A DNA stretch of 64,000 nt from Scenedesmus sp. PABB004. Its lineage: Eukaryota. A model generated the notes under the pieces. The model was not told the origin of the DNA. It was given only the letters and a program-made list of their open reading frames with translations, and did no database searches. This document shows positions 1 through 24,437 of the stretch, one piece after another. Each line of letters begins with the position of its first letter. Position 1 is the first letter of the stretch. Location of the stretch: assembly GCA_014905635.1 (NCBI GenBank), contig JABVCE010000040.1, positions 1 to 64,000 on the forward strand, in the 5' to 3' direction. A program made the translations under genes and the position numbers.

Positions 1-2
1 GC

Positions 3-507
3 GGCGGCTGCACGCGCTCCGTGCGCGGCGGCTTGGCGTGCTGCCTGCCCGGTGGGGCGGCTTTTTCATCGGTGCCGCGGCTTTCTCAGGGGTTTTTGCA
101 GCAAAGCCAACTGCTGCCCCCTGGTGTGTGCGTGTGTCGTCGCGAGGCGCGGGGGCTGATGCCGCTGAGGCCGGCCCCTGCCGCCGCCAGCGTGGATGGC
201 GTTTGCGCGTGGTCTCTGCGCGGAGGCTTGGAGCCGGTGCACCTCGCTGCGCCGATGCCCGGTGCGGCTCGCCGCACCGGAAGGGGGGTGTGCGGCCTGA
301 TCTGCTGCTGCCCCTTTGATTGCGGGGCATCACCTGGTCTCCTTGGGCGCCCGTTGGGCGTTGGCCTCTGGCTGTGCCGTTGGGTGATGTGTGTGCCCCC
401 TCTCGGGGGGCGCGGGGCGCGGTTTTTCACGAGGGGTTGCTGCGCTCTTCCCGTTGGAGTTTTTTTCAGTGGGCTGCCCTGGGCCTCGGTCCTTGTTTGG
501 TCACCCA

Positions 508-538
<31 letters not shown>
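3..538 (+). mobile_element. Poly(A)-tailed non-LTR retroelement-like insertion, copy 1 (3' part only; truncated or cut by window edge)
   Basis: 3..538 is near-identical to 993..1515 (a few substitutions and indels). It ends CCCATTGT followed by 27 A (512-538), then immediately GGGGAAACGGCG, the start of the satellite unit. Confidence 0.7.
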
Positions 539-709
539 GGGGAAACGGCGCCCGGCAGCGCTGCGCCGCGGCGCCGCCGAGCGGCGCGCGCGCGGGCGGC
601 GCGCGGCCCGCGGCGCGGCGCGGCCGCCGGCGGCGGACCTCGGCGGCGCAGCGCGTGCCGGGCAGCCCGTTGGAGCCCCGCACCTCCGCTCCGCAGGGGC
701 GGCGGGGCA
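539..709. repeat. Single 171-bp satellite unit between the two insertions
   Basis: Same sequence as the units at 1516-2343 (GGGGAAACGGCGCCCGGCAG...CCCGTTGGAGCCCCGCACCTCCGCTCCGCAGGGGCGGCGGGGCA). Confidence 0.95.
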
Positions 710-721
710 GGGGAAACGGCG

Positions 722-1515
722 GCGCCGGCGCTGGCCCCGCCGGCGGCGCAGGACCCCGCGGCGGCGGCGCGGCGGCGGCGGCGGCGCAGCGCGGCGGCTA
801 GCTGCAGGGGCCGGGGGGGTCCGCGGCCGGGCTTGCTGCGACCCCGGCTGGCTGCGTGTCGCGCCTCTTCTGCAGCGTGCAAGGTTGGGCGGTGTCCGCC
901 CGTGCCGCGGGGCTGGTGTCTGCGTGTTTGTCGTCGCGCGGCAAGGGGGCTGCAGCCGATGGGGGCCGGCCCCTGGCGCCGCCGGCGTGTTTGGCGGCTG
1001 CACGCGCTCCGTGCGCGGCGGCTTGGCGTGCTGCCTGCCCGGTGGGGCGGCTTTCTCATCGGTGCGCGGCTTTCTCAGGGGTTTTTGCAGCAAAGCCAAC
1101 TGCTGCCCCCTGGTGTGTGCGTGTGTCGTCGCGAGGCGCGGGATGCCGCTGAGGCCGGCCCCTGCCGCCGCCAGCGTGGATGGCGTTTGCGCGTGGTCTC
1201 TGCGCGGAGGCTTGGAGCCGGTGCACCTCGCTGCGCCGATGCCCGGTGCGGCTCGCCGCACCGGAAGGGGGGGGTGCGGCCTGATCTGCTGCTGCCCTTT
1301 GATTGCGGGGCATCACCTGGTCTCCTTGGGCGCCCGTTGGGCGTTGGCCTCTGGCTGTGCCGTTGGGTGATGTGTGTGCCCCCTCTCGGGGGCGCCGGGG
1401 CGCGGTTTTTTCACGAGGGGTTGCTGCGCTCTTCCCGTTGGAGTTTTTTTCAGTGGGCTGCCCCTGGGCCTCGGTCCTTGTTTGGTCACCCATTGTAACA
1501 AAAAAAAAAAAAAAA
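722..1515 (+). mobile_element. Poly(A)-tailed non-LTR retroelement-like insertion, copy 2 (~0.8 kb, probably 5'-truncated LINE)
   Basis: Flanked by the direct repeat GGGGAAACGGCG at 710-721 and 1516-1527 (target-site duplication). Ends with TGTAA (1494-1498), C, then 16 A. The body is GT-rich and resembles a 3'UTR. No RT or endonuclease motif recognised. Confidence 0.75.
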
Positions 1516-2343
1516 GGGGAAACGGCGCCCGGCAGCGCTGCGCCGCGGCGCCGCCGAGCGGCGCGCGCGGGCGGCGCGCGGCCCGCGGCGCGGCGCGGCC
1601 GCCGGCGGCGGACCTCGGCGGCGCAGCGCGTGCCGGGGCAGCCCGTTGGAGCCCCGCACCTCCGCTCCGCAGGGGCGGCGGGGCAGGGGAAACGGCGCCC
1701 GGCAGCGCTGCGCCGCGGCGCCGCCGAGCGGCGCGCGCGGCGGCGGCGCGCGGCCCGCGGCGCGGCGCGGCCGCCGGCGGCGGACCTCGGCGGCGCAGCG
1801 CGTGCCGGGGCAGCCCGTTGGAGCCCCGCACCTCCGCTCCGCAGGGGCGGCGGGGCAGGGGAAACGGCGCCCGGCAGCGCTGCGCCGCGGCGCCGCCGAG
1901 CGGCGCGCGCGCGGCGGCGCGCGGCCCGCGGCGCGGCGCGGCCGCCGGCGGCGGACCTCGGCGGCGCAGCGCGTGCCGGGGCAAGCCGTTGGAGCCCCGC
2001 ACCTCCGCTCCGCAGGGGCGGCGGGGCAGGGGAAACGGCGCCCGGCAGCGCTGCGCCGCGGCGCCGCCGAGCGGCGCCGCGCGCGGGCGGGCGCGCGGCC
2101 CGCGGCGCGGCGCGGCCGCCGGCGCGACCTCGGCGGCGCAGCGCGTGCCGGGGCAGCCCGTTGGAGCCCCGCACCTCCGCTCCGCAGGGGCGGCGGGGCA
2201 GGGGAAACGGCGCCCGGCAGCGCTGCGCCGCGGCGCGGCGCCGAGCGGCGCGCGCGCGGGCGGCGCGCGGCCCGCGGCGCGGCGCGGCCGCCGGCGGCGG
2301 ACCTCGGCGGCGCAGCGCGTGCCGGGGCAGCCCGTTGGAGCCC
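1516..2343. repeat. GC-rich tandem satellite, 170-172-bp units (4 full + 1 partial)
   Basis: Units start at 1516, 1686, 1858, 2029 and 2201. They are near-identical and head-to-tail with no unique spacers. Confidence 0.97.
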
Positions 2344-2428
2344 GGCGAGTGTATGCGCGCACCGAGCGGAGCAGGGACCCTCGTTTGCGATGATTCGGGC
2401 GGGTGGCGCCGCAACTCAGCTCGATTCA

Positions 2429-2433
2429 TTACA
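2429..2433 (-). terminator. Putative TGTAA polyadenylation signal of PTOX
   Basis: TTACA on + strand, ~390 nt past the PTOX stop. UGUAA is the established chlorophyte poly(A) signal. Confidence 0.5.
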
Positions 2434-2816
2434 CCGCACGCGCGCTCGCTGAAGCCATGTGCTCGTGCGTCTGCAATCCACATATCAAGAGCTAGGAGGG
2501 TGCACGTGGATTTGCCCTCACGCAAACAATGCTTGCCACCGCCGCCCAAAATCGCGGCGGCAATGTCAGTTGGGTTGTGTGTGCATGACTGACTGACTGC
2601 ATGCTGCGCGCGCCGTGACAAAACATGGCAGCGGCAAACGTGGCAGCGCCTGCAACAAGGGCTGCGAGGCTTGCGTCGCAGCGGGGCCCAGCCGTCGGCG
2701 GCCGTCGCCAGGAAAAGTGCGGGGCGAGAGTGTTATTGCTGCCGGGAGCTGCCTGCCCCGACCCCCGCGCGCCGCGCCCTGCCCCGCGCACGCCGCGCCC
2801 TGCCCCGTCGCGTGGT

Positions 2817-4084
2817 TTAGAGCCGGCGGCCCGCCTCCTTGCGTGCGGCGATGTCGGCCATGATGGTGAGGTCCTGGCACGCGGCCATGGTCTTGACATG
2901 CTCGCCCTCGTCGTCCCGGATGTTGATGAACACATCGTGCAGGTTGTCGCACCGCGGCGTGCGCGGGCTCGCGGTCGAGGCCTGGCGCACGCAGGCGGCA
3001 GCGGCAGCGGCGCTGAGGCGCGGCGCGGCGCGGCGCCGGGTGCGCGTGCGCGGCATCGCCTACGCAGGCGGCGCCCGGTGGCCGCTCTCGCACACCCCGC
3101 CGCCCTGGTACGCCCCACCCCGCGCCAATAACTCACCTGGCTCGTTTGGAAGTCGTCAAAGAGGTACAGGTCCTGCCCGGGGGGGGGTGGAAGGGGACGG
3201 GCGAGCTGGATGCGGCGCAAGCTGCCGGCCTCCCGGTTGACCAGCCTGCAGCCCAGGCACGCCCCACTCACGGGCCAAGGCAAGCCCTAGCCCCCCCTCC
3301 ACCCCACACACGCGCGCTTGCGCGCACCTTGCCCAGGTAGTACTCGGCCGCCACGAGCGGCGGCGGCAGCGTCTTCAGCAGCTCCTCGTTCGCGTCCGCA
3401 AACTCGCCCTGCGCGCGCGGGGCGGGGGGGGGGGGGGGGGCTCGGCGCGCACGGCGGCGCGTTGCGGCGGCGGCGGCGGGGCCCGCAGCGCACGGCAGCC
3501 CGCGCGCGCGCGCGCGGCATGCGCACGTATGTGTCGACCGCGTGCGCCTCGATGAGCTCGCTAAAGTTGTACGCGAGGCTGGGCGACGCGACAAAGAGGA
3601 CGAGCAGGATGACGTAATACACCATCGCCGCGTGGAAGGCCATGAAGCGGTCAACCCTGTGCGTGTGGGTGTGGGTGGGTGTGGGTGTGGGTGGGTGCGC
3701 GCGGCGGGGGGGGGGGCGGTGCGCGGCGGGCGCGCGCTTGCCGCTCGAGGGAGGGAAGGAGGGGCCGCGCTCGCACAGGCCCGCGCCGCGCCGCGCGGAG
3801 CCGGCGCCGCACCAGAGTTGGTCGCCGCCGAGGCTCTCCATGATCTGCAGGTGGTGCAGCTCGTTCCACTCCTCCGCAAAGTGGATCTTGCGCAACTCCG
3901 CGCCCGCGCGCCACCAGCCAAAACGTCTCGTACAGGTGCAGGCTGCGCCGCGCGGCGCGCCGGCGGCGGCAAGGCGTGGTGTGCGCGCCGGGGGGCGCGG
4001 GGGAGGCGCGGCGGGGCGGCGCTATCGCCCCCGGCATGTTGCTGCGACCGCCTGCGCATGACACGCACACACACAAGCCCCCCC

Positions 4085-4166
<82 letters not shown>

Positions 4167-6990: not shown

Positions 6991-8546
6991 ACTGCGACAA
7001 CCCTAGCTGGACGGCGCGTCCATGGACGGCGGCCCGCTCGCGACGCCGGACGACTGCCTGGAGGCCGAGGCCATCGCGCGCGCCGACGCGCGGGTGACGC
7101 GGCCGCGCCGCGGTCGTGCGGCACAGAGCGCGCCGCGCACTGCGCCGCCGCCGCCGCTCACGCGCCCGCCGGCCGGCGCAGGTCGCGGCGCTGCTGTCGG
7201 AGCGCGGCGTGTCGCTGGCGCAGGTCGCGTGCGACCCCTGGGCCATCCACGCCTGCCCGCCCGAGTGGCGCGGCCGCCGGCTCATGCAGGCGCGGTGGCG
7301 CCACGCGGCCGGGCGCCCCGCCCCGCTCCCTGCGCGCGGCCGAGCGCACGCCCCACCAGCACGCCGCGTCTCCCTCGCCTCCTGCCCCCCCTCTCCGCTC
7401 CCGCACGGGGCGCTTCCGTCCGTCCCCCTTGTCCGTCAACCCCCGCCCGCCCAACGTCCGTCCGGCCCTGCTCACACACTCACACACACACACACACACA
7501 CACACACCAGGTGTTTATGTACTTCAAGGCCTCCCCCGATGATAACGAGTACGCGCACCCGCTCGACCTCTGCCCCGTCGTCGACCTGCACGCCCGCACC
7601 GTGGTGCACATCGACGCGTACGACGCCCCGCCCGCCGTGCCGCGCCGCCCCGGCAACTACCACCGTGCGCTGCTCGACCGCCCCTTCCGCGCGCCGCCGC
7701 GGCCGCTGACCGTCAGCCAGCCCGAGGCGCGGCGCGCCGCGCCGCGCAGTGCGGCGCGGCCGGCCGCGCCGCGCGGCCCGCGCGCGCGCGCTCGGTGCCC
7801 CGCCCGCCAACGGCCCGCGTCCGCGTCGGCGCCCGCGTCGGCGGCGCGCAGGGTCCGTCGTTCACGGTGGACGGCTGGCACGTGTCGTGGCAGGGCTGGG
7901 ACCTGCGCCTGGGGTTCAACGGGCGCGAGGGCCTGGTGCTGCACGACGTGGGGCTGGTCGACCCCGCCCAGGGCGGGCGGCGCCGCCCCGTGGTGCACCG
8001 CGCCTCCATCGTGGAGATGGCGGTGCCTTACGCCGACCCACGGTGGGGCGCGCCGCGCCCGCGCGGCGGGGCGCGGGGCACGGGGTGCAGGGCCGGGCGG
8101 GCGGCAGGCGGCGGAGCGCGGGGCCCGGGGCCCGGGCGGGGGACAGGCGCGGCGACGGGCTGAGCCGCCGCCGCTCCCGGGCGCAGGCCGCCGTACAACC
8201 GCAAGTGCGCGCTGGACGCGGGCGACTACGGCCTCGGCTTTGCCGCCAACAGGTGCGCCCGCCGCGCCTGCCGCGCGCACCGTGCGCACGCGCGGCGGGG
8301 CAGGGCGGGGCCGACCCGCGCATGCGCGTCCGCACTAACCGCGACACCCGCGCCGCCCCCGCCGCCGCGTCGTGGCTGTGCAGCCTGTCGCTGGGCTGCG
8401 ACTGCCTGGGCGAGGTGACCTACTTTGACGCCATCGTCAACGACGCGGCGGGGGCGCCCGTGACCATCCGCAACGCCGTCTGCCTCCACGAGGCGCGCGC
8501 GGCGCGCGCAGCGGGGCGCGGCGCCAGGCGGGCGCGCTCAGCCGCC

Positions 8547-8577
<31 letters not shown>

Positions 8578-10561
8578 CAGGAGGACCACGGCCTGCTGTG
8601 GAAGCACCTGGACTATAGGTGCGTTTGGGGGGGGGGGACAGGGCAGAGGGCAGCGCCGCGCGCCGGCGGCGCGTGCGCTGCCGCGCGACCCCCGCGCGCG
8701 CGCGCCCACGCGTCCGCCGCGCCCGCCGCGGGGCCACACGCAGGACGGGCTACGCTGAGGTGCGCCGGGGGCGGCGGCTGGTGGTGAGCTTCATCATGAC
8801 GGCGGTCAACTACGAGGTGTGACGCGGCGGGTTAGCGGCAGGGAATGCCCACGGCAGCGGTTTAGCAGCAGCATCGGGGTTGAGGGATGCAGGGAGCAAG
8901 GACGGGAGCGGGGCGGAGGGAGTGGGAGTGGTGCGCCGCGCGGCCGCGTCGCTCACGCCGCCCGCGCTGCGCGCGGCCCCACGCACGCCCTTAACCGCGC
9001 AGTACTGCTGGTACTGGTACCTTTACCAGGTGAGAGGCTCCGCCCGGGGGCTGCCTGCGTGCTCGCCCGCCCGCCCGCCTGGCCGCCCGGCCGCCGCCGC
9101 GCGCCCGTGGCACGGCCCTCCGCGGCGGAGCCCTCGACGCCCCCGCCCCCGCCCCCGCCCCCGCCCCCGCGCGCCGCGCGCCGCGCGGCGCGCGCCGCCA
9201 GGACGGCACGATCGGGTTTGAGGTCAAGCTGACCGGCATCCTCTCCACCTCGCTCCTCTCGCCCGGCGAGGCGGCGCCGAGCCACGGCGTGCTCGTCGCG
9301 CCGCGCGTCAACGCGGCGCACCACCAGCACATCTTCAGCGCCCGCCTCGACCTGGCGGTCGACGACGACGCCGGCGGGCGCGGCCTCGTGGTCAGCGAGG
9401 TGCGGGGCGGCGGGCGCGCGCCAACGCGCTGCGCGCGCTGCGCGCGCGGTGGGCGGGTGGGCACGGCGGCGGCGCCGCTGCTGCGGGAGCGCTGAACGCT
9501 GAGCTTTGCCGCCGCCGCCGGTGCCGCCGCCGCGTGCGCGCGCGCAGCTGGACGCGGTGCAGGAGCCCACGGGGCCGTCCAACCCCGCGGGCAACGCGTT
9601 TGGCTGCAGCGAGCGCGACCTCACGACCGTGCACGGCGCGGTGCGGCAGGCGGCGCCGGCGGTCAACCGCGTGTGGCGCATCAAAAACCCCGCCCGCCGG
9701 CACCCCCACAGGCGCGTGCCACGCGCTGCGTGCGCCTCGCATGCGCCTCGCATGCGCCTCGCGTCCCTCTGCCCCCCCCCCCCCACACACACGCACTCAC
9801 TCACCACTCCCCCACTCTCACTCTCATCACTCTCACACGCGCAGCGGCGCGCCGATCGCGTACCACCTCTACCCCGCGGCGGGGCCGGTGCTGCTCGCGG
9901 CGCCCGACAGCGCGGTCGCGGCGCGCGCAGCCTTCACGACGGCGAGCCTCTGGGTCACGCCCCACCACGACGCCCAGCGCTTCCCGGCCGGCGAGTATGT
10001 GTTCAACTCGGCAGACGACTCGGGCCTGCGCCAGTGGACGCGCCAGGCGCGGGCGCGGGCGGCGGCGGGGGCGCGGGGCGCGGCGCCGGCGCGGGCGCGG
10101 GCGCGGGCGCGGGCGCGCGCGCGTAGGGCGGGGGCGGGCGTGGTGCGGCGCGGTGCGGCGCAGGACGCCCGCCGCCGCCGCGCCGCAGGACCGCTCGCTG
10201 CTCGGCGCCGACCCGGTCGTGTGGTACACGTTTGGGGTGAGCCGCGCCGCGGCGGCGCTGCCGCGGCAGCTGCCGGCGCCCGGGCGGGGGCAGAGGAGCG
10301 GCGGCGGCCGCCCGCGCCGGGCGCGGCGCCCGCCCACCGCGTCGCGTCGCGTCGCCGCCGCCGGTCGTGTGCCCGCAGCTGACCCACTTTGTGCGCCCCG
10401 AGGACTACCCGGTGATGCCCTGCGACACGGTGGGCTTCCAGCTCAAGCCGGTGGGGTTCTTCGAGGCAAACCCCGCGCTCGACGTGCCGCCCGAGGACGC
10501 CGCGCCCGCGGGACAGGCCGCGTGCGGCGGCGGGTGCGGGCCGCCGGCGTCCAAGCTGTGA
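6390..10561 (+). CDS. Copper amine oxidase, probably peroxisomal, ~17 exons
   Basis: [49 protein letters not shown] motif TAVNYE/Y, Cu ligands [18 protein letters not shown]-terminal SKL (PTS1). Confidence 0.95.
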
Positions 10562-23365: not shown

Positions 23366-24437
23366 TCACCCCCAGATGCCAATGACGGCCATGCCGCCCA
23401 CGCCGCACAGCGTCGCTGCGACCAGCCCCGCCGCGAGCCGCGGGCGCAGCAGGAGGTCTGACTTGCTGAACTCCTCGCCGATCTGCGCGCCGCGGCGCCG
23501 CGGCGGCGGCGAGGCCCATCGGCGCGGGGGCGGGTCGCGCGCGCCCTGTGCGCCCCGGCCAGGCCCTGCAGGGAGGGGCCCCGGGCGGCGCGCGCGCGCG
23601 CGCCCACCTACCAGGTGGAACATGCACACCGCGAGCAGCATGCCGCCGCTCGCCGCGTTGAGCGCGCCCTGCGCCGCGAGCGCGGCGAGCGAGTCGGCGT
23701 TGTAGCGCGGTGCGGCGGCGATGCCGATGGCGACGCCGGCGGGCATGCAGAGCGCGTAGCCCAGGGCCATCGCGCCGCGCTTGGCGCGCCCGAGGCGGCT
23801 CGCCGCCAGCGCGGCGCCCAGGGCCAGTCCCTCCAGCGCCTGGTGGAAGACCATGACTGCCGTGGTCGTCGCGAGCAGCTGCCGCGCGCCGTGCGCGGCC
23901 TCGGACGTCACGCCGATCGACACGCCTGCGCGCGGCGGCGCGGCGGGCGGCTCGGCGCGGCGCCGCGGTGCGCCCCCCGCCGGCCCGCCCGGGGGCAGGC
24001 AGCGCGGGGCACACGCCCCCCGCGCGCCGCGGCGGACGTGTGCGCAAATGGGCGGCGGCGCCGGTCAACACAGTCAACGCAGCAGTCAACACAGTCAACA
24101 CAGTCAACACAGTCAACACAGTCAACGCAGTCAACGCAGTCAACGCAGTCAACGCAGTCGTCGCAGTCGTCGCACCGATGATGACCGAGTGGAAGACGCA
24201 GCCCGCCTCGAGCGTGTACGCCGCCAGCCAGCGCCGCACGCTCGTGATCTCGCAGCCGGGCGCGTGGTGGTGGCTGTGCGCCAGCGCGGAGACGCCGGTC
24301 GGCGCGGACGACGCGCCGCCGCCGCCGGGCGCCGCCGCGGGTGGCGCCTCGACGTCGGCGGGCGCGGGGCAGCAGGGCGCCGGCACGTGCACGCCGCCCG
24401 CCGGCGGCGCCGAGGGGCGCGGCGCGGCGCCCTTGGC

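Follow-up and report, generated by a model that had tools for sequence, protein, structure and literature searches.

A poly(A)-tailed retroposon and its target-site duplication in a GC-rich satellite array of Scenedesmus sp. PABB004

The window analyzed in this study, which is the whole 64,000-nucleotide stretch of DNA presented above, is eukaryotic and extraordinarily GC-rich. Its composition is ~80% GC across the 64 kb with values of 0.75-0.82 in all 2-kb bins, A makes up 10.6% of its bases, and third-position GC is 0.92-0.96 in eight long open reading frames (ORFs). Pfam families identified among these eight ORFs include MPP6, CBF/Mak21, subtilase and ZIP. A NOC3-like protein is also encoded in the window, with a top identity among 14 matches that does not exceed 57%. 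For the nearest cluster in the Atlas, the most frequent taxon is Haptophyta. The window is gene-dense, and its sole clearly non-genic part is the first ~2.35 kb, where two copies of a poly(A)-tailed element are embedded in a tandem satellite array. The presumed last exon that adjoins this array (2820-3059, minus strand) gave no Pfam family. The features of the non-genic interval are as follows:

1-511 (body 1(3)-511), plus strand: retroposon copy 1, truncated by the start of the window and so represented by its 3' part; counterpart of 993-1499 in copy 2
512-538, plus strand: A27, the poly(A) tail of copy 1, immediately preceded by TGTAA (509-513); listed as a row by Tandem Repeats Finder
539-709, plus strand: single satellite unit u0 between the copies, which opens with GGGGAAACGGCG at 539-550
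710-721, plus strand: left target-site duplication of copy 2, GGGGAAACGGCG, possibly 13 bp with the A at 709
722-1499, plus strand: body of copy 2; 722-799 is GC-rich and low-complexity up to the TAG at 799-801, the remainder is G+T-rich and A-poor; TGTAA at 1494-1498
913-1215, plus strand: imperfect direct repeat within the element, 913-1026 versus 1110-1215, ~77-80% alike
1500-1515, plus strand: A16, the poly(A) tail of copy 2, with AAC ahead of it
1516-1527, plus strand: right target-site duplication of copy 2, the 12-mer GGGGAAACGGCG
1516-2346, plus strand: satellite array, 4.8 units of 170-173 bp, 89% GC, 96-99% alike; unique DNA from ~2346

An initial annotation of this DNA had described two near-identical poly(A)-tailed segments that end right before the same satellite sequence one unit apart, and both the coordinates and the sequence confirm that description, with the two copies being 97% alike. 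Specifically, BLAST aligns copy 1 (3-530) with the 722-1515 segment of copy 2 at 97.17% identity over 530 columns. Comparison of 3-511 with 993-1499 shows mismatches in 5 columns and gaps in 9, the latter grouped into 5 indels, with most of the differences being homopolymer runs that are 1 nt longer or shorter in one copy than in the other. Bases 1-2 of the window are GC as compared to TT in copy 2, which could mark a different 5' end but is accounted for just as well by an additional GGC within a (GGC)n run. The bodies of both copies end with ...CCCATTGTAA and then pass into a run of A residues that is A27 in copy 1 and AAC followed by A16 in copy 2. Beyond both tails the sequence continues with GGGGAAACGGCGCCCGGCAG, which is the start of the satellite unit. 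Apart from these two tails, no run of A or T in the 64-kb window reaches 8 nt and, given this fact together with the low A content of the window, chance is excluded as the origin of the tails.

The junctions of copy 2 define a target-site duplication. The 12-mer GGGGAAACGGCG is preceded by A-tails at 539 and at 1516, and after the 12-mer at 710 the first base of the element (722) is found in place of CCCGGCAG. Excision of 722-1527 (806 nt), which can be performed for copy 2 only, yields a 170-nt spacing from 710 to 1686 with the satellite in phase. The perfect 12-bp direct repeat that had been noted on both sides of copy 2 (710-721 and 1516-1527, around 722-1515) is thus a true target-site duplication, because the element start replaces CCCGGCAG at 710 and because excision restores a 170-nt unit. 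The duplication may be 13 bp in length as the satellite base that precedes the 12-mer is an A. We also considered 722-801 as a decayed piece of satellite, an origin that would undo the target duplication. This candidate was rejected as the best local alignment has a score of 27, is out of phase and was reached by 49 of 500 dinucleotide shuffles. The junctions, the uniqueness of the tails and the restorable empty site together uphold the earlier reading of tail and duplication as the product of target-primed reverse transcription, and retroposition of this poly(A) type with a 12-13 bp target duplication is well supported. The 5' truncation that was part of the same reading was not observed, since the 5' end of copy 1 is outside of the window and the end of copy 2 at 722 is set solely by the duplication.

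The target of these insertions is a satellite for which Tandem Repeats Finder gives a repeat length of 172 nt, a copy number of 4.8 and 97% matches over 1515-2343. BLAST comparison of the window with itself places units that are 96-99% alike at 539-710 and 1516-2346, giving a total of ~5.8 units in the window and thus a multicopy target. The satellite had initially been given a length of 171 bp; its tandem nature stands, and the fixed length has to be replaced by a range of 170-173 bp. Seven occurrences of GGGGAAACGGCG are present in the 64 kb, all of which are on the plus strand and confined to the array (539, 710, 1516, 1686, 1858, 2029 and 2201), with an undisturbed spacing between successive 12-mers of 170-172 nt. 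The 12-mers at 1686, 1858, 2029 and 2201 are empty, which means that four of the six visible target sites are without an element. The unit contains only 19 A/T bases in 171, and an AAA at unit positions 5-7 is its sole A/T run of 3 or more. Rfam gave no match to the satellite, which is not U2-like. In the remaining 61 kb of the window, BLAST self-comparison found no further satellite or element copy, with the matches there limited to low-complexity GC sequence.

The element itself has no coding capacity in the window. Its tailed strand is 41% G, 32% C, 21% T and 6% A, and GC is 0.66-0.77 at codon positions with no positional difference in any frame, which indicates an absence of codon periodicity. 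No Pfam families were obtained from the element frames. A low-complexity frame of 26 codons does run through 721-798 to a TAG stop at 799-801, and this frame could represent the terminal codons of an ORF or, at such GC content, have no meaning. There is no tRNA, 5S or 7SL head, as ARAGORN found no genes and Rfam no family at gathering scores; at E up to 1, Rfam gave one weak snoRNA-like match (E 0.58). A SINE was rejected as a classification, with ARAGORN and Rfam revealing no Pol III head. A conserved 3' stem-loop was also not detected in the last 120 nt, which fold no better than shuffles (z 0.12). Furthermore, the window contains 347 ORFs with a length of 120 amino acids or more, and their Pfam matches (E up to 1e-4) include no reverse transcriptase, AP-type or restriction-like endonuclease or integrase. 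The window copies are non-autonomous or 5'-truncated, and the enzyme must come from elsewhere given that the window ORFs contain no reverse transcriptase or endonuclease and that the element exhibits no codon-position GC bias.

The 3' end of the element does contain one recognizable signal, as TGTAA directly precedes both tails. The same motif also follows four ORF ends (56903, 48399, 60144 and 2429) on the proper strand, at distances that are, from shortest to longest, 27, 227, 252 and 384 nt, which represents four of its six occurrences outside of the element. Derived chlorophytes use UGUAA as their poly(A) signal (PMC1868727). From its position before the tails, its presence downstream of ORF ends and this known function, the element looks like a polymerase II transcript with a chlorophyte-like poly(A) signal.

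Additional copies were sought in public sequence data. An exact 21-mer from the element 3' end and an exact 25-mer from the body gave no loci in JGI metagenome contigs, and IMG/VR viral contigs gave no loci for the element 25-mer or for a satellite 26-mer. Two loci of the 21-mer in prokaryote genomes were rejected as chance, as they reside in bacterial MAG contigs of 35-38% GC in which BLAST detected nothing similar to either the element or the satellite. Two open frames of the element were also used as protein queries, aimed at spurious ORFs that would carry the flanks. With these, the plus-strand frame 3-536 gave none among 1153 candidates at E up to 0.001 and the minus-strand frame 89-541 gave no matches among 1.84 billion representatives. 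Public runs that contain some of the sampled words, at most 0.38 of them, number 17 and come from nine studies; most are freshwater metagenomes, and no RNA run is listed among them. Contigs from four of the runs (X1, X5, X6 and X8) were compared with positions 1-3200 after masking of 503-636, 752-799 and 1491-1559, which include both poly(A) junctions. Three of these runs, X1, X6 and X8, each from a different study, contain element pieces of 106-558 nt that exhibit few differences (~98% identity). The metagenome contigs have GGGCT after 1141, as does copy 1, and they differ from both window copies at 1134, 1196, 1235/251, 1377/394, 1444/460 and 1453/469. Coverage is zero in all four runs at 536-642 and in the unique DNA at 2355-2568.

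Assembly of the element in three freshwater studies without the neighbouring unique DNA provides a weak hint of a multicopy family. In X1 the word depth, which is not a copy number, is 28-47 for element contigs as compared to ~0-3 for the unique flank. Satellite-like contigs occur in X1 and X5. In one contig from X1 the element, from ~252, is joined to a stretch of unrelated sequence of at least 255 nt, and the end of this stretch is not the 12-mer. This may be a chance or variant join, and it constitutes only a lead against strict target specificity. A loose contig end at 717 was observed in X6, which we record only as a lead. Many ~33-nt matches between the satellite and long, deep contigs of X8 have the appearance of chance similarity to other GC-rich organisms and were left out.

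From these features, we propose that target-primed reverse transcription placed a copy of a non-coding, poly(A)-tailed retroposon RNA in the satellite. This RNA would be either a non-autonomous passenger or the 3' portion of a LINE-like element, with a TGTAA end as for a Pol II transcript, and the reverse transcriptase was presumably encoded elsewhere. The bottom strand would have been the first to be nicked, just 3' of ...GTTTCCCC(T) (also given as ...CGCCGTTTCCCC(T)), with cDNA synthesis started on the poly(A). A top-strand nick 12-13 nt away, after ...AACGGCG, followed by fill-in would then result in duplication of GGGGAAACGGCG. Subsequently, an unequal crossover between the units that flank a single insertion, one unit out of register, could generate the observed order of element, one unit and element.

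We give the interpretation that the pair represents one insertion that was later duplicated about an even chance of being correct. The copies are separated by exactly one unit (539-709), which is the specific product expected of a crossover that is misregistered by one unit, and unequal exchange or conversion appears to be ongoing in the array since its units are 96-99% alike. The copies are also each other's closest relatives among those seen, because both share the states at which contigs from the three metagenome studies differ, and occupancy is not generally high because the four 12-mers to the right are empty. If the pair is indeed one insertion then the site that it shares is uninformative regarding the target choice of the family. 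There are, however, observations that argue against a single insertion. The tails are unlike (A27 versus AAC plus A16), and both copies have private changes relative to the metagenome version, which in copy 2 comprise a 5-bp loss of GGGCT, further 1-nt changes and a G at 1273 and in copy 1 two 1-nt losses of C. The 1-nt homopolymer differences between the copies could also be assembly errors. Finally, the unit after copy 1 is 98.3% identical to the unit after copy 2 versus 98.8% to the next unit, and thus does not exhibit closer kinship to its supposed counterpart.

Another explanation is that the element belongs to a sequence-specific family for which a partner endonuclease cuts one position of the unit, such that the two copies are independent insertions in adjacent units. 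We consider this unlikely, even though several properties of the locus are those expected of it. Both 3' junctions are identical to the nucleotide, the tails are unequal in length and purity, and the cut is 4-5 nt from the only A/T run of the unit, which is unlike a T-rich primer that anneals to poly(A). Both retroposon tails of the 64 kb lie within the satellite, with none elsewhere, the window is gene-dense, and the depth of element contigs relative to unique flank in X1 (28-47 versus ~0-3) weakly hints at many copies. Specificity has additionally been argued to pay most in compact unicellular genomes, with YURE having a preference for a U2-derived satellite (PMC4640811). These points are offset by the fact that there are only two copies that are possibly non-independent, that four of six visible target sites are empty, that the window ORFs yielded neither a reverse transcriptase nor an endonuclease, and that metagenome, prokaryote, viral and protein-proxy searches provided no further locus. 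The X1 contig that has a non-12-mer junction at ~252, possibly a chance or variant join, is also at odds with such a family.

A related proposition, which does not depend on the two copies being independent, is that the family, in a freshwater eukaryote of extreme GC content, is specialised on one nucleotide position of an anonymous, non-RNA-gene satellite that serves as a safe harbour in a gene-dense genome. We regard this as possible although doubtful. Specialisation could hold even if the pair is the result of one event because a single insertion in the satellite itself is more expected of a specialised element, which is also a point against the interpretation of one insertion that was later duplicated. 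On the other hand, two copies that may be dependent cannot show that the family aims at the satellite.

A weakly specific LINE endonuclease that hit the array twice independently is, in our assessment, improbable. Such an enzyme would find hardly any alternative site to cut in a unit of 89% GC, and non-genic insertions would be the ones that survive in a compact genome. This would accommodate the location of the insertions beside the AAA at unit positions 5-7, the sole A/T run of 3 or more among 19 A/T bases in 171, and the fact that the first 2.3 kb is the only clearly non-genic stretch of the window. However, the nick is located 4-5 nt off the bottom-strand TTT, which leaves a primer end of ...CCCC(T) that is not T-rich, and two hits that agree to the nucleotide are demanding for a loose preference.

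We think it very improbable that the element is a retrocopy of a cellular mRNA, in which the last codons and a long 3' UTR of a processed, 5'-truncated message were inserted by a LINE enzyme acting in trans and then duplicated with the array, an explanation that overlaps with that of a single insertion. The frame at 721-798 that closes with the TAG at 799-801, followed by ~700 nt of G+T-rich, A-poor sequence and then TGTAA and a tail, does have the layout of such a message, and four ORFs of the window are likewise followed by TGTAA at a distance of 27-384 nt, UGUAA being the signal of derived chlorophytes (PMC1868727). Nevertheless, BLAST revealed no parent gene in the window, the 26-codon frame is low-complexity in a composition where any frame is open, and assembly of the element in three studies without unique flank is a better fit to a multicopy repeat than to a single-copy gene.

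Lastly, an assembly artefact, in which a repeat near the contig end was mis-joined or mis-collapsed so that the copy spacing or copy 1 is unreal, is hardly credible: the window begins inside copy 1 and the copies differ mostly by 1-nt homopolymer length changes, which are typical of long-read errors, but both junctions are clean and in satellite phase, the tails differ and independent metagenome contigs (with junctions masked) confirm the element sequence.

Comparison with known systems places the element closest by habit to the Tx1 and R1 clades, which are characterized by their poly(A) tails and duplications. Features held in common are a poly(A)-type 3' end, a short defined duplication and insertion at one position in a tandem target. 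This likeness is one of habit, and it involves two possibly dependent copies and an anonymous GC-rich satellite rather than an RNA gene, transposon, microsatellite or telomere repeat. Both clades are included in a list of target-specific APE-type non-LTR groups (PMC4640811). The RLE-type elements R2, NeSL, Utopia and YURE are described as specialising on multicopy repeats, as the target here is multicopy, with YURE of Ciona preferring a U2-derived satellite (PMC4640811). In contrast to these elements, the insertions in this window have a long pure poly(A), a duplication of 12-13 bp and a satellite that is not U2-like, and no RLE, zinc-finger or reverse transcriptase is found in the window.

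An open-access keyword search found no report of a non-LTR family that is aimed at one position of an anonymous satellite, a result that leaves absence of such reports unproven. If the satellite is aimed at, then a private satellite would join rRNA, snRNA, spliced-leader and tRNA genes, microsatellites, telomeres and transposons as targets, thereby constituting a target class outside those listed for known site-specific non-LTR lineages. It would also imply an enzyme that can nick and reverse-transcribe in a sequence-specific manner on DNA that is almost entirely G+C. If the satellite is not aimed at, then the locus would be a textbook retroposition scar in a tandem array that is a marker of recent retrotransposition and unequal exchange in a GC-rich and poorly sampled eukaryote. 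The scar itself is real and textbook.

More generally, L1-type retroposition leaves a tail, a duplication of 7-20 bp and a polyadenylation signal before the tail, with nicking at a T-rich consensus. Non-autonomous RNAs and retrocopies mobilized in this manner resemble the element in having a tail, a duplication, no coding capacity and a signal before the tail. They differ in that the nick observed here is not at a T-rich consensus, with the signal being TGTAA and not AATAAA. The cut is beside, not in, the AAA run of the unit, which accounts for the C-rich primer end. The Zepp LINEs of Chlorella and Coccomyxa form one non-genic cluster per chromosome or are present at chromosome ends, where they are nested (PMC3446292). 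Compared by description only, Zepp is LINE-like and cluster-confined, and its copies are nested whereas those in the satellite are un-nested. LINEs constitute ~1.3% of centromeric sequence across taxa according to a recent survey (10.64898/2026.09.17.752431). McGurk and Barbash report that dimers of transposable elements commonly form by insertion-site preference and can then expand (10.1101/158386); consequently, both double insertion and crossover are established routes to a pair. Such tandem dimers, and higher-order repeats that bear transposable elements, likewise consist of head-to-tail copies at one site, while in this array one satellite unit intervenes between the copies.

The pentamer TGTAA occurs six times outside the poly(A)-tailed retroposon. 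Four of these occurrences follow the end of an ORF on the matching strand at a distance of 27-384 nt, a placement that suggests that the poly(A) signal is chlorophyte-like. These four are:

48399, plus strand, TGTAA downstream of an ORF end
56903, plus strand, TGTAA downstream of an ORF end
2429, minus strand, TGTAA downstream of an ORF end
60144, minus strand, TGTAA downstream of an ORF end

The TGTAA at 2429-2433 is on the same strand as an alternative oxidase (AOX)-family gene that terminates with a TAA at 2817-2819, some 470 nt away from where the GC-rich satellite stops:

2817-4021, minus strand, gene of the alternative oxidase family (match to Pfam AOX at 3290-4021, E 1.1e-07)

The presumed last exon of this gene contains ...DVFINIRDDEGEHVKTM..., which may resemble plastid terminal oxidase. 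A perfect microsatellite, (CA)38.5, is present at 4087-4163 and a second, (CA)17.5, at 7473-7507.

Two further features concern gene structure:

7000-10400, plus strand, copper amine oxidase gene in at least five frame-shifted ORF pieces
24064-24159, 9-nt tandem repeat GTCAACACA (10.3 copies, 92% matches)

The fragmentation of the copper amine oxidase gene indicates that it contains several short introns. The GTCAACACA repeat has a ZIP transporter family ORF piece, assigned by its match, on either side and is probably intronic.

The GC content of this eukaryotic window (1-64000) is 75-82% in each 2-kb bin, with a third-position GC of 0.92-0.96 in its long ORFs. The organism is poorly sampled, as the best relatives of its NOC3-like protein are only 41-57% identical, and parts of the region are contained in freshwater metagenomes.
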